A DNA stretch of 53,108 nt, taken from the sequence record SRR22947727_980; one strand, given 5' to 3'. A program made the position numbers and the translations under genes. This document shows, one piece after another, positions 19,819 to 53,108 of this stretch (its first letter is position 1; every line of letters starts with the position of its first letter). The notes beneath the pieces are model-generated. The model saw nothing but the letters and a program-made list of their open reading frames with translations, searched no databases and was not told where the DNA came from.

Positions 19819-19892
19819 TGGGGCGTAGCCAAGCGGTAAGGCATCGGGTTTTGATCCCGTGATCGTTGGTTCGAATCCAGCCGCCCCAACCA
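19819..19892 (+). tRNA. tRNA-Gln (anticodon UUG)
   Basis: Acceptor TGGGGCG/CGCCCCA; D-arm GCC-AAGCGGTAA-GGC; anticodon loop TTTTGAT; T-arm GTTGG-TTCGAAT-CCAGC; encoded CCA; U1-A72 pair. Confidence 0.96.
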
Positions 19893-48185: not shown

Positions 48186-48847
48186 CATTCTCAGTTGATA
48201 AAAAAATAAAGATTTCAGAAGATATAATTACTGAATACGCAGCAGGTAATCTTAGCCCAGCTAAGCACACTGTTGTGGCATGTCAGAGCGAGATATGTGA
48301 AGAAGTTTCAAGCCGTATAATGTTTCAAGAGCAAATTGCAGCGTCTATGATTGAAGAGGTCCAAACTAAAATCCTTTCTCCCCTTTTCATGGGAAACGTT
48401 TTGGCAAATTTGCCTCCTCAAGACAAATTTTCATCTAATAATACTAATATCGAAAATAACTCTCCACGAACACTTAGCCATCTTTTAGGGTGTGGGTTAA
48501 ATGAAATGAAGTGGAAATCACTAATACCTGGTGTGGCTGTTCATGATATATTAGGTAATAGACATACTAAAGATGGTGATAGGCTATACCTTTTGAAGGC
48601 TAAAGGTGGAATGCAAATGCCTAATCATGGCCATAATGGGGAAGAGTGGACACTTATTCTAAAAGGCAGTTACAATGTTGGTGATAAAACTTTTGTCCGA
48701 GGCGATCTACACATTGAAGATGAAGATGAGATACATAGCCCCCATATTAACGAAGGTGAGGACTGTATTTGCTTGGTTATGACTCAAGGTCCACTAAAAA
48801 TGAAAGGTTGGCTTCCTCGGTTAGTTCAACCTTTAGTAGGTATTTAG
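48182..48847 (+). CDS. chrR: ChrR-family anti-sigma factor (anti-sigma domain plus cupin)
   Basis: EYAAGNL N-terminal motif; cupin PNHGHNGEEWTLILKG...HSP...CICL. Confidence 0.88.
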   Translation: MTFSVDKKIKISEDIITEYAAGNLSPAKHTVVACQSEICEEVSSRIMFQEQIAASMIEEVQTKILSPLFMGNVLANLPPQDKFSSNNTNIENNSPRTLSHLLGCGLNEMKWKSLIPGVAVHDILGNRHTKDGDRLYLLKAKGGMQMPNHGHNGEEWTLILKGSYNVGDKTFVRGDLHIEDEDEIHSPHINEGEDCICLVMTQGPLKMKGWLPRLVQPLVGI

Positions 48848-48848
48848 C

Positions 48849-51683
48849 TCAGCCATAAGCGTCATAGTGATGTGTTATGGCCACAGTTATTTGTTTTACG
48901 AGATTACCAGCTCTTTCTAGTGGTTTGATTATTGACTCAGTTATATGAGGAAAGCCACCTGGCGGAGCTACTGGTTCGTTAGTCTTCTCCTGTAGTTGCT
49001 CTGTCCATTCCAATGCAGACCTTGTTTCTGGGTACCGATCTTTCAAATCTTTTATTATACTATCTATTTGAAATGTTTGTAGCTTTTGTAAAACATTTAT
49101 TTGGGAGCTGCTTTCTTCACCAGCAGCAGGTAATTCTGTAGCTATTATCATCATTTTCATAATAATTGATAACCTAAGTGCATGTAAGATCTCTAAATCC
49201 TCAATATTATAATCATTAGATACATTCATTTGAGTCTCAAAAAACTTTATAGAATTATAAGTATCAATTCGTAATTGATTGGAAAGATCCATTATTTGTG
49301 ATCGCCAAGAGAGTGATTTTAAAGTTGCGGCAACTTCTAAGCTCTTGCTTTCTAACCGAGGTTCATTGCTTGATATACCTCTACTAACCCAAAAACCAGG
49401 GTCAAATAGACGGCTGTAAGCACTCAATATTGACATATTTGTGCGTTCCAGTGAACTAATTACTAATGAGAAAATTGAATTTGCTCTTGGCGAATTTTTA
49501 TAATGGTTTGAAAATTTTTCAATATCGATAGAAACAGCCTTACCAATACCGTAAAAAATATTTGCCGGTATTCCAAACTGTTGTAAAATTGCATTATGCG
49601 GTATGGCACGTAGTTGCCTTGGATCAAACATACCAGATTCTGCTTTTGACCTTTTGGATGCTCTTGAGCCCGTTGGTATAAGAAGATTTTGTCCAAACCC
49701 TGAAAGCAATTTTATATAATTTGGATCATTATATAGATTTTCTTGTTGAGAGCTTATTGTTCTAAATACATCCCAAGAGAAATCAGTATCTTTGTAAAAT
49801 ATATCAATATCAGCTTTCTCTTTATTAGCATAACGTGCTTTTAGAAGAGAACTGATAGTGGCATTTGTTAAATCTTCAGTCTGGAACCACATAAAACCAT
49901 CACCCCCTTGGAAGCTTGTTTCGTGGCAGATAGGTAATAAGCGTTTTTCGAATTGTCTCATTGCCCAAGGACTCATGACATAATTTATTCTATCTATTAT
50001 AGACCCAGAATGCCCACCTCTTCCTAAACTTTCACCATGAGTATTGAATATAACTGCAGTTACATTCTTTAGGTTAAACTTCTCCATTTGCGATGCAAAA
50101 TGCGAATGCAGGCGTTCTATTGCTAAGGTTGCTGGTATTTGCCCCATAAATCTACCAGCATCAGAAAACCCTGTTTGAATTGCAAATACACCCCTATCCT
50201 TGATATACTCTCTGTATACTTCATTTTTCAACATTTTACCAATTATACGACCTCCATTATTCAAAGCATCTGCTGTTTCAAACAATGGGGAAATATCTAA
50301 ATATTTTTCAATTCCATATCTTTTAGCTAAATAGAGCATGCCCATAGGAGTTAAGCTATCTTCACATTCAGCAATTAAGAGTCTTATGGGCGTTTCATCG
50401 TCAATATATTTGTGAATTTGTGCAGTTAGTATCATTTTTTCATGTGCTGTAGACTTTTCTAACGCCAATGAACCAAAATTTACTGGTTGTACTTTCACAT
50501 TTTTTGTAAGTTTAGATGCTCTTAATAATAAAGTTCGTTTATCTGAAGTATGATCGGCTATTCCAAAAGTTGATTTTAATGCAGAAACAACATGCTGATT
50601 GTTTAAGCGAAAATGAATTCGAGCTGTACCAAGGCCAAAAGCGACCATTTTTGACCGCAAACAAATTAAATCTCTATTAAGTTCAAATATTTCATTGTGC
50701 TCAAGTATCTTGTTTATGAGTTTAATTGGACTTTTAAGGTTTAAGAAGCGTCGGGTTGATGTTCTTGTAAGGTTATTTGCAGCTGCAACAAGATTTTCTG
50801 GATTTGTTATATCTTTTTCAAACAGAGTTAAATCTCTCTCAGCACTTTCATGTGCGTCCGATAGTTTTTTTAAAAGTTCATCTAAATGATTATTTTCTTG
50901 TAAACTTTTTTCATATTTATCGCTTATATTTGAAACTGATTTTTTGTATCTATAGAGTTGATCTCTTTTTTCTTGAAGTCTTAGTCTTAAAGCATCCCCC
51001 CAACTTATGTCTGTTCTACCATCAATATCATACCCTACCCAACTGTATGCATTTATTAAGTGGGGCGTTATAGACTTCCAATCATCAGGAAATAACTTTC
51101 TACCTATACTGATGATGCTGCTGTTTATATTATCCAGCTCAATTTGAATTCTTTCGAGCGTTTCTTGTGTATCTTCATGTTCCTCTTTCAGTGTGGGTGC
51201 CCTTTTAGGTAAATAAGGGAAGCCTTTTAACTCTTCAACTGAACTATTGTATTTAGTCTCCTGACTACTTGCAATTACTCCTAAACATTTACGTATATCT
51301 CGCGATAAAGAAAATGTTGGATGGGCTGTGAGAACTATACCAATACCAGGGCTTTCAGCCCAAATTTTAAAAGCTTTAAACCCCTCATTAGCTTTTTGAA
51401 ATGCTATTTTTTCTAGTGATTTCTTTGTATCACTATTACTGTAAATACCAGCTCTTTTTCTTAATCTTCGGCTTCTTTGGATTGCTGCATTGTCAGATAT
51501 AGATTTAACTAAACTTTCTATATCTTTGAAAGCTACAGTACGGTCTTCAACATCTTTTGAAATATCGTAAGCTAATAATTTTATTGCATTAGACTGAGGA
51601 TCAGAATTTTTATGGGTTCTATATTTAATTAATTTAGTTTTTAATTGATCGTTTAGTTCTATAGATGTTTTTTTACGAGTAAT
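48849..51683 (-). CDS. ppc: Phosphoenolpyruvate carboxylase, divergent type, 944 aa, predicted ATT start
   Basis: Manual translation shows no stop in this frame from 51713 down to the stop at 48849. The part missing from the ORF track contains IVLTAHPTF (about 51312-51338) and SWVGYDIDGR (about 51015-51044). Downstream motifs: SPLFET, GFSD, GRGG, LRAIP. Confidence 0.85.
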   Translation of the reverse strand: MTRKKTSIELNDQLKTKLIKYRTHKNSDPQSNAIKLLAYDISKDVEDRTVAFKDIESLVKSISDNAAIQRSRRLRKRAGIYSNSDTKKSLEKIAFQKANEGFKAFKIWAESPGIGIVLTAHPTFSLSRDIRKCLGVIASSQETKYNSSVEELKGFPYLPKRAPTLKEEHEDTQETLERIQIELDNINSSIISIGRKLFPDDWKSITPHLINAYSWVGYDIDGRTDISWGDALRLRLQEKRDQLYRYKKSVSNISDKYEKSLQENNHLDELLKKLSDAHESAERDLTLFEKDITNPENLVAAANNLTRTSTRRFLNLKSPIKLINKILEHNEIFELNRDLICLRSKMVAFGLGTARIHFRLNNQHVVSALKSTFGIADHTSDKRTLLLRASKLTKNVKVQPVNFGSLALEKSTAHEKMILTAQIHKYIDDETPIRLLIAECEDSLTPMGMLYLAKRYGIEKYLDISPLFETADALNNGGRIIGKMLKNEVYREYIKDRGVFAIQTGFSDAGRFMGQIPATLAIERLHSHFASQMEKFNLKNVTAVIFNTHGESLGRGGHSGSIIDRINYVMSPWAMRQFEKRLLPICHETSFQGGDGFMWFQTEDLTNATISSLLKARYANKEKADIDIFYKDTDFSWDVFRTISSQQENLYNDPNYIKLLSGFGQNLLIPTGSRASKRSKAESGMFDPRQLRAIPHNAILQQFGIPANIFYGIGKAVSIDIEKFSNHYKNSPRANSIFSLVISSLERTNMSILSAYSRLFDPGFWVSRGISSNEPRLESKSLEVAATLKSLSWRSQIMDLSNQLRIDTYNSIKFFETQMNVSNDYNIEDLEILHALRLSIIMKMMIIATELPAAGEESSSQINVLQKLQTFQIDSIIKDLKDRYPETRSALEWTEQLQEKTNEPVAPPGGFPHITESIIKPLERAGNLVKQITVAITHHYDAYG

Positions 51684-51690
51684 TGTTTTA

Positions 51691-51697
51691 CTCCTTA
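51691..51697 (-). promoter_or_regulatory. Shine-Dalgarno for ppc, overlapping the gap stop codon
   Basis: Minus strand reads TAAGGAG-TAAAACA-ATT; the TAA is the gap stop and the spacer is 7 nt. Confidence 0.8.
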
Positions 51698-52705
51698 AAG
51701 AAACTTTGACATTTCAGAAGCTGTGTCTAGCATGCGGTTTGAAAACCCCCATTCATTATCATACCAGCTTAAAACTCTAACCAAAGTGCCATCTATTACT
51801 ATTGTTTCACCGGAGATAAGGTTTGATGAGTGAGGGTCATGATTAAAATCAATAGAAACTGTTTTATCATCAATTACTTGTAAAATATTTTTTAATGTTC
51901 CTTTTTCAGCATCTCTAAAGCTGTTTAAAACATCATCTATTTTTACAATTTTTTGAAGGTTTACAGTTAAATCAACAGCAGAGACATTAGGTGTAGGTAC
52001 CCGTATTGCTTTGCCATCAAGTTTTCCTTTTAACTCAGGAATTACCAACCCTATTGCGCTAGCAACACCGGTTGATGTTGGAATCATTGACATGGCTGCT
52101 GCTCTTCCACGATTGAAATCTTTATTATGTATTGTATCAAGTGTAGGCTGATCGCCCGTGTAAGCATGTATAGTTGTCATAAAACCATTTTTTATGCCAA
52201 ATGAATCATTAAGAACTTTCGCTACTGGTGCTAACGCATTCGTTGTACATGAACCGTTGGAAACAATTTTGTCAGACGCGTCTAAATTTTTATGGTTAAC
52301 ACCATATACAATGGTTTTATCGGCTTCAGCACCGGGTGCTGAAATTAAGACACGTTTTGCGCCTGCCTTTATATGACTAAGAGCTTTATCCCTATGGGTA
52401 AATATTCCTGTACACTCCATAACGATATCGATGCCATCATCAGACCAATTCAAATCCTCAAGATTACGAATTGAGGTAACATTTATTTTCTTTCCATTTA
52501 CTTTTAAAATATCACCTTGGCTTTGTATTTCTCCATTGAATCGACCATGTACAGAGTCATACTTAAATAGATGTGCTAAATTATCTGTTTTTGACAGGTC
52601 ATTAACCCTAACTATCTCAATGTCTTTTTTATGATTTTCTTCTAAGGCTCGCAAAATATTACGCCCTATACGTCCAAAACCATTTATAGCAATTCGGATG
52701 GTCAC
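51695..52705 (-). CDS. gap: Glyceraldehyde-3-phosphate dehydrogenase (type I)
   Basis: INGFGRIGR, catalytic SCTTN, RVPTPNVS, WYDNEWG; GTG start. Confidence 0.97.
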   Translation of the reverse strand: MTIRIAINGFGRIGRNILRALEENHKKDIEIVRVNDLSKTDNLAHLFKYDSVHGRFNGEIQSQGDILKVNGKKINVTSIRNLEDLNWSDDGIDIVMECTGIFTHRDKALSHIKAGAKRVLISAPGAEADKTIVYGVNHKNLDASDKIVSNGSCTTNALAPVAKVLNDSFGIKNGFMTTIHAYTGDQPTLDTIHNKDFNRGRAAAMSMIPTSTGVASAIGLVIPELKGKLDGKAIRVPTPNVSAVDLTVNLQKIVKIDDVLNSFRDAEKGTLKNILQVIDDKTVSIDFNHDPHSSNLISGETIVIDGTLVRVLSWYDNEWGFSNRMLDTASEMSKFL

Positions 52706-52724
52706 TAATATATCCTTATAAAAT

Positions 52725-52738
52725 TGACAGCGCTGTCA
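52725..52738. promoter_or_regulatory. LacI/GalR-type operator upstream of gap-ppc
   Basis: Perfect 14-bp palindrome TGACAGCGCTGTCA, GC-rich in an AT-rich spacer, 19 nt before the gap start. Confidence 0.75.
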
Positions 52739-52886
52739 TTATAATAAAACTTGGTTATTAAGCAAGTTAAAATAGGTACATTCAGTTTTTTTTTCTTTTT
52801 TTATAAATTTTGAAAGATAGTTTTACTGTTGTACCTTATTGCTCAATACTCTCTCTTTACTTATGTTTTAATCCCTTTAGAGCTAA

Positions 52887-53108
<222 letters not shown>

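Follow-up and report, generated by a model that had tools for sequence, protein, structure and literature searches.

A divergent phosphoenolpyruvate carboxylase gene of marine Hellea with a probable AUU initiation codon directly behind gap

The DNA described here, referred to as the window, is the whole 53,108-nucleotide stretch of sequence record SRR22947727_980, and the source names of database proteins identify it as coming from a marine Hellea sp. (Alphaproteobacteria). The window carries a gap-ppc gene pair, in which a gene for a divergent phosphoenolpyruvate carboxylase (PEPC), ppc, follows the glyceraldehyde-3-phosphate dehydrogenase gene, gap. Comparative evidence strongly supports an ATT codon at 51683 as the start of ppc, behind a Shine-Dalgarno (SD) sequence that overlaps the gap stop codon. 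It is very probable that the full-length enzyme is translated from this AUU (51683-51681), with the SD positioning the ribosome and with ribosomes delivered from gap.

The features of the region are listed in Table 1. The junction reads ...CTT TAA GGAG TAAAACA ATT ACT CGT AAA AAA..., and the SD matches over 6 nucleotides (nt) with a spacing of 7 nt (51690-51684) before the ATT. A first-pass annotation of this DNA, made from the letters and a list of open reading frames (ORFs), had noted that the ORF track begins the protein at TTG 50660 although the frame stays open to 51713, and both points are confirmed. It had also described 341 extra codons devoid of in-frame ATG, GTG or TTG but containing two PEPC motifs, together with an ATT 7 nt after an SD that shares the gap TAA, from which a full-size enzyme would be made. 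Each of these descriptions agrees with our own reading: the first canonical codon is residue 342, the motifs VLTAHPT and SWVGYDIDGR are present ahead of it, the junction coordinates are correct, and translation from the ATT yields 944 amino acids (aa). The upstream product matches the Pfam families Gp_dh_N (129 bits) and Gp_dh_C (209 bits).

Table 1. Features of the gap-ppc region, in window coordinates.
Feature	Position	Strand	Remarks
gap (glyceraldehyde-3-phosphate dehydrogenase), upstream cistron	51695..52705	minus	ORF; GTG start; TAA stop 51697-51695
ppc Shine-Dalgarno AAGGAG	51691..51696	minus	opens with the two A that end the gap stop codon
ATT, proposed ppc initiation codon	51681..51683	minus	11 nt downstream of the gap stop
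ppc, divergent PEPC, 944 codons plus stop	48849..51683	minus	frame open from 51713 to stop 48851-48849
Second in-frame ATT, residue 19	51627..51629	minus	without SD; start in three 926-aa NCBI models
VLTAHPT motif, residues 117-123, His121	51315..51335	minus	5' of first canonical codon
SWVGYDIDGR motif, residues 214-223	51015..51044	minus	invariant columns S214-R223
First canonical codon in frame (TTG), residue 342 from the ATT	50658..50660	minus	

Two properties set this reading frame apart within the window. Among the 43 stop-to-stop frames of at least 150 aa, a long stretch ahead of the first canonical start occurs in the ppc frame alone, 351 codons as compared with at most 34 in the others. 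The SD is also strong for its genome: a match of at least 6 nt is seen in just 2 of the 39 other long ORFs of the window, with the best-supported canonical start picked for each. No in-frame canonical codon preserves the conserved N-terminus of the protein, and conserved motifs lie 5' of residue 342.

The letters of the ATT are consistent across independent data. Nineteen public runs from 15 studies contain the whole or part of the stretch, and contigs rather than reads were compared for four runs, each from a different study, two of DNA and two of RNA libraries. Positions 51681-51683 are covered in all four (X4 record 21, X15 record 16, X14 record 9 and X1 record 3) and no alternative letter occurs in these contigs, the nearest differences being at 51539 and 51948. 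The nearest genome (L001) is identical to the window at the junction, and relatives carry ATT or ATC. The first-pass annotation had allowed that the codon might be an assembly error for ATG, and with the contigs of four runs and the nearest genome in agreement and nothing found in its favor, an assembly or sequencing error of this kind has a negligible probability. Two of the RNA-library contigs (X15 record 16 and X14 record 9) bridge the junction and cover gap and the start of ppc, although DNA may be present in such libraries and the contigs cannot show strand, level, RNA start or a single transcript. In metagenome runs the summed contig depth rises 5-30 fold at 51660-51830, where numerous contigs have loose ends. 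This segment, the conserved end of gap (the WYDNEWG region), is shared with other organisms, and the rise is not a feature of the genome.

Comparison with relatives shows that the unusual codon is not peculiar to the window. Among 41 related genomes the gene is present in 24, including 14 of the 17 of the same genus, and in 15 of the loci the N-terminus is included. Twelve of these 15 have ATT or ATC at the codon that aligns with residue 1: two have ATT (L001, L002) and ten have ATC (L003, L005-L010, L012, L013, L015), with an ATG directly after it in L013, and every one of the 12 has an AGGAG-like SD just 5' of the codon. In the other three (L011, L023, L027) a different codon stands there, with ATG or TTG after it. 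Sampling one genome from each species added 80 named loci, bringing the total to 108 records including the window. Twelve duplicates were removed, as were L004, in which a contig end cuts the N-terminus, and 21 records without the anchor motif. Six of the latter were rescued by tblastn, L046 repeats L011, and the other 14 were left out as distant homologues (at most 37% identity) or fragments without the N-terminus (L027 is a fragment with a TTG start). The final set contains 78 distinct family loci, from Hellea, Litorimonas, Algimonas and Robiginitomaculum, and two outgroups.

The junction alignment that the first-pass annotation had proposed as a check gives ATT or ATC (hereafter ATY) at the homologous codon in 54 of the 78 family loci, and a canonical codon otherwise. 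ATC is found in 42 and ATT in 12, and ATA in none. In 26 loci the ATY stands without any ATG, GTG or TTG nearby, and 25 of these lie directly behind gap; in 28 it is accompanied by a canonical codon within three codons (23 directly behind gap); and 24 have a canonical codon alone (19 directly behind gap). An SD is recorded for 24 of the ATY-only loci, with matches of 4-7 nt at spacings of 4-10. Overall, gap is directly upstream in 67 of the 78 loci, its stop codon lying within about 50 nt of the start. Cultured strains that carry an ATY include Hellea balneolensis DSM 19091 (L032/L007), with the junction GGAGGAG, 6 nt, ATC GCC CGC AAA and thus a predicted N-terminus of Met-Ala-Arg-Lys, and Litorimonas haliclonae CIP111178T (L104), which has ATT.

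Within the family one Litorimonas/Algimonas clade has a junction in which an SD is followed after 7-8 nt by ATC (or ATT) AAA CGN ATG (rows L047, L048, L050, L052, L054, L055, L057-L062, L064, L065, L082, L084 and L092). The ATY AAA is kept in all 17 of these rows while the spacer varies, and the sister row L083 is without any ATG. Public models for this clade begin at the ATG (941 aa, MTTQEL...). The SD is placed for the ATY, and the ATG, 16-17 nt from that SD, has either no SD match or a 4-nt match at a spacing of 11-12. The annotated proteins may lack their first three codons, or initiation may occur at both sites.

The position of the ATY relative to its surroundings indicates where coding begins. 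The codon is constantly 26-27 codons ahead of an invariant DPQ[SA]N motif, whereas its distance from the gap stop varies from 9 to 36 nt, and because the first distance is fixed while the second is not, coding can be placed as beginning at the ATY. The same geometry bears on a conceivable fused Gap-Ppc product, which would arise if ribosomes shifted frame or read through the stop codon where gap ends. Such a fusion is compatible with a ppc frame that remains open for 10 codons 5' of the ATT, overlapping the end of gap, and with L015, in which both genes are in the same frame. However, the phase of ppc relative to the gap stop varies among relatives through all three possibilities, the spacer differs in both length and sequence, and most loci have an in-frame stop 3-12 codons 5' of the ATY. 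The variable phase and spacer, set against the fixed distance to DPQ[SA]N, exclude fusion as a general mechanism, and we regard it as scarcely credible for the window.

Database models of the gene are inconsistent. Three NCBI models from Hellea metagenome-assembled genomes (P0002-P0004, 944 aa) begin with MTRKK or MTRRR at the homologous codon, and three others (P0005-P0007, 926 aa) start from the residue-19 ATT. Of the 120 models listed (P0002-P0121), 46 are truncated to 828, 819 or 811 aa, some of them cutting into VLTAHPT, and models of 967-970 aa in relatives are over-extended into gap. Even for near-identical Hellea genes the NCBI models disagree among 944 aa (ATT or ATC as codon 1), 926 aa and 819 aa (an internal start), and models from other sources are mostly of 828, 819 or 811 aa. 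The first-pass expectation that standard gene callers would truncate the gene thus holds for these 46 models but not for the three NCBI models that start at the ATT or ATC codon.

The 926-aa models raise the question of whether another in-frame near-cognate codon is used, the candidates being residue 8, an ATA (51662-51660), and the residue-19 ATT (51629-51627). Both are in frame, and the residue-19 ATT of a close relative is where P0005-P0007 begin. Neither codon, however, has an SD match within 3-13 nt, and neither is conserved as start-like in the more distant Hellea loci, where the residue-19 codon is not ATY. Residues 2-27 are moreover under purifying selection relative to the closest relatives, with ratios of nonsynonymous to synonymous substitution rates (dN/dS) of 0.14 and 0.27. 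We consider a start at either codon improbable.

A further possibility is that the only product is a 603-aa protein from TTG 50660 and that the 341 codons upstream are a decaying remnant following a recent loss of the start. The TTG is indeed the first canonical codon, and many automatic models of relatives are truncated. Comparison with the two closest relatives (L002 and L003, 87-88% protein identity) nonetheless gives a dN/dS of 0.13 over codons 2-341, as compared with 0.06-0.07 over codons 342-944, from which it follows that the N-terminal part is translated and constrained. The position of the first canonical codon in relatives is scattered from codon 13 to codon 341, and there is therefore no conserved internal start, while ATY-only loci are spread over deep branches of the family. 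Recent start loss, which the first-pass annotation had recognized as a potential objection, is accordingly contradicted both by the ATY-only relatives and by the constraint on codons 2-341, and we assign the short product only a very slight probability.

The nature of the protein provides additional evidence against the short product. Pfam PF00311 (PEPcase) matches residues 14-558 with 66.4 bits against a cut-off of 22.4, and this is the sole PF00311 match in each of three Hellea genomes that are 97-99% complete (G001, G012 and G003). Among solved structures the only sequence match is to Escherichia coli PEPC (1fiy), and it is weak (E 5e-8, residues 336-558). Modelling by AlphaFold2 from 16 family members gave a predicted local distance difference test score of 80.4 and a predicted template modelling (TM) score of 0.82, and the best Foldseek matches in the PDB are all PEPCs, from plants and E. 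coli, at full length and with a probability of 1.00 (E 1.6e-18 and weaker). The TM scores to the solved PEPCs are 0.55-0.65 over about 970-1000 columns. His121, which we take to be the catalytic histidine, is invariant in all 16 aligned family members, and its VLTAHPT aligns to that of 1fiy within a weak local stretch. The modelled strands E114-119 (the VLTAHPT region) and E210-219 (the SWVGYDIDGR region) form parts of the PEPC barrel. Since both strands and His121 lie 5' of TTG 50660, the 603-aa product would lack all three.

The PEPC is nevertheless an unusual one. Canonical PEPCs (E. coli 1fiy and 1jqn, and the maize and Arabidopsis PPC enzymes) share with it a full-length fold and alignable VLTAHPT, FSD and GRGG motifs, although the ppc protein departs from the E. 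coli enzyme at several positions of the GRGG region. Classical PEPCs end in an NTG-type C-terminal motif. This is absent from the ppc product, which ends in ...ITHHYDAYG (48849-48875), and the family consensus is ...THHYDAFG; the whole family ends in THHYDA(Y/F)G. The family constitutes a separate, uncharacterised subfamily of PEPCs in marine Caulobacterales-like bacteria.

The history of the start codon was followed on a FastTree tree of 73 full-length rows, from which the first 35 residues were removed so that the trait's own columns were not used. The window's clade (support 99) consists of eight rows, every one of them ATY-only, and ATY-only rows are also scattered over many deep branches. 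The ATY is thus old and persistent, with canonical codons gained beside it many times.

Several observations weigh against the proposal of a selected, weakly initiating AUU for a PEPC coupled to gap. The start type is labile, with at least 15 changes among three states on the 73-row tree, and canonical codons stand beside the ATY in 28 loci; other codons can thus take the place of the ATY, and these data do not establish selection for a weak start. Repeated origin of canonical starts likewise argues against a strict need for a weak codon. The link with gap is also imperfect. Family copies without gap upstream have a canonical codon in 10 of 11 cases, the exception being L067, but four independent contrasts between gap adjacency and ATY-only starts, although consistent in direction, are not significant (median p 0.5), and the association is suggestive only. 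L067 is one of two PEPC copies of this family in Robiginitomaculum antarcticum DSM 21748; it has an ATC-only start and retains about 20 nt reading like the gap C-terminus (VMAKFL*), a relic of the 3' end, with no gap gene upstream. The second copy, L077, has a different context and reads ATT ATG. Finally, the enzyme is far from the characterised PEPCs, with 12-15% sequence identity to those of solved structure and a score of 85.4 bits to the NCBIfam equivalog NF000584, below its cut-off of 815. The product belongs to a divergent subfamily and is not an equivalog of the characterised enzyme. We infer its activity, and the metabolic meaning, which depends on that activity, is inferred with it.

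These considerations lend substance to an alternative in which the AUU or AUC is the real start but the choice of codon is near-neutral: with a strong SD and a hand-over of ribosomes from a heavily translated gap, the codon would drift between ATY and canonical forms, without any regulation by initiation factor 3 (IF3). The 15 or more changes of start type agree with this, as do the 28 loci that have both an ATY and an adjacent canonical codon, the 24 canonical-only loci of which 19 are still behind gap, and the unusual strength of the ppc SD for the window. Set against it is the retention of T or C at the third base in all eight rows of the window's clade and in the partial locus L015, despite synonymous sites that are saturated between members of the clade (proportion of synonymous differences 0.77-0.96), as well as the absence of ATA among the 54 ATY-type loci and the SD-ATC start site that infC has in this genus. 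These three observations point to some constraint, although the rows are kin and not independent. Near-neutral drift is a serious possibility, to which we give somewhat less than an even chance.

A plausible mechanism for initiation at the AUU, which remains the start that we favor, can be outlined from the anatomy of the junction. The AUU would be read as formylmethionine (fMet) by the ordinary initiator fMet-tRNA, with a mismatch at the third position. The AAGGAG located 7 nt upstream would position the ribosome, and the poor codon could be offset both by the 6-nt SD and by ribosomes that, having terminated gap 11 nt upstream, arrive at the AUU, delivery to the ppc start being expected because the gap stop is so close. 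Initiation is probably a mixture of re-initiation and SD-driven de novo initiation. A contribution from translational coupling to gap would fit the co-directional arrangement, the 11-nt distance and the adjacency of the two genes in 67 of 78 loci. About half of initiation at the E. coli thrS-infC junction (UAA GGU AUU) is by re-initiation, and in E. coli reporters re-initiation accounts for about 40% of initiation at a distance of 20 nt (PMC3592434).

The output of the AUU would be expected, by analogy, to be lower than that of an AUG. In an E. coli reporter AUU is reported to be 6-8 fold below AUG or GUG (PMC3592434), and non-canonical codons are given as yielding 0.01-2% of AUG by Hecht et al. 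The cell might then make Ppc in a low, fixed proportion to Gap, perhaps in an IF3-sensitive manner, and the IF3 level could modulate the ppc start as it does that of infC; excess IF3 inhibits non-canonical starts (PMC2268962). The suggestion of the first-pass annotation that a weak start could set the Ppc:Gap ratio or tie anaplerosis to IF3 would fit such a scheme.

A point in favor of the IF3 idea comes from infC itself, the textbook gene with a non-canonical start, which in this lineage also has ATC in a start context. An SD-ATC start site is found in two Hellea genomes. In G012 (L109) it reads TAAGGAG, 8 nt, ATC GCC AGA CGC, and the conserved domain is not preceded by any canonical codon, while in G003 (L108) the same SD-ATC is present together with an ATG eight codons later; in the nearest genome, G001, the infC start is unreadable because the gene is cut by a contig end. 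The first codons of infC (I-A-R-R; ATC GCC AGA CG(C/T)) resemble those of ppc in H. balneolensis (I-A-R-K). A bolder extension is that ppc and infC share an AUY start against which IF3 discriminates, such that the level of IF3, and hence growth state, throttles the sole anaplerotic PEPC relative to Gap from the same mRNA, with selection keeping the codon of the Hellea clade away from ATG and ATA. We regard this as speculative and rather unlikely, but if true it would constitute a small 'IF3 regulon' joining translation capacity to the fixation of carbon into oxaloacetate.

The initiator tRNA, identical in G001, G012 and G003 (L131-L134), carries the anticodon CAU and the C1xA72 mismatch, and its anticodon stem opens with an A:U pair. 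The A:U pair is described as natural in all alpha-proteobacteria in PMC5389676, and it therefore explains nothing special to ppc. A special initiator tRNA reading AUY was considered and rejected, a pattern search for the initiator anticodon arm with a GAU anticodon giving two hits in G003, neither of which is a tRNA. At the junction a 6-bp hairpin is predicted in which part of the SD pairs with the UU of the AUU, but with a z-score of -0.93 and complementary bases that are not kept in L002 it was dropped as a feature. Scans of 48600-53108 gave 18 promoter-like sites, with 18.2 expected, and no terminators, and the single Rfam match in the window is a tRNA at 19819-19889.

The closest parallels are two E. 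coli genes that start with AUU, infC and pcnB, which are described as the two confirmed cases in that organism in 10.1101/063800. As with infC behind thrS (PMC3592434), the ppc start is an AUU-type codon a few nucleotides after an upstream stop and with an SD, and IF3 discriminates against such codons (PMC2268962); as noted above, Hellea infC has an SD-ATC site of its own. It differs in that the ppc product is an enzyme of central metabolism and not the discriminating factor, so there is no obvious autoregulatory loop, and in that the spacing is 11 nt as compared with 3. The likeness to pcnB, which encodes poly(A) polymerase and is named as the second confirmed E. coli case in 10.1101/063800 and among the references of PMC3592434, is that of an enzyme gene with an AUU start. 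The output of pcnB is held down by its inefficient AUU. The ppc codon, by contrast, is an ATY in 54 of the 78 loci of a single family and lies behind gap. Like termination-reinitiation operons, gap and ppc are co-directional, with a very short gap between them, an SD at the end of the upstream gene and conserved adjacency, but the classic coupled cases overlap (ATGA, TGATG) and use AUG (PMC6728339, PMC10666635), and ppc has an 11-nt gap and a non-canonical codon.

Starts of this kind are thus already known, from infC and pcnB, and this instance is implicit in three NCBI models. Literature searches on the PEPC start codon and ATT, on Hellea PEPC, and on conserved non-AUG or AUC starts, with supplementary files outside their reach, found no paper on the ppc start. 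Confirmed bacterial AUU and AUC starts are very few, and ppc, a gene of central metabolism, has retained one throughout much of a family-level group of marine Alphaproteobacteria, beside a fixed partner. Its interest, which we judge to be moderate, rests on this depth of conservation, on the fixed partner gene and on the existence of cultured strains. The gap-ppc pair offers a natural system for asking whether weak starts are selected to set protein ratios within operons, how far re-initiation relaxes the choice of start codon, and whether the influence of IF3 level reaches beyond infC. For the organisms themselves, metabolic reconstructions that rely on truncated models may miss or mis-score their sole PEPC.

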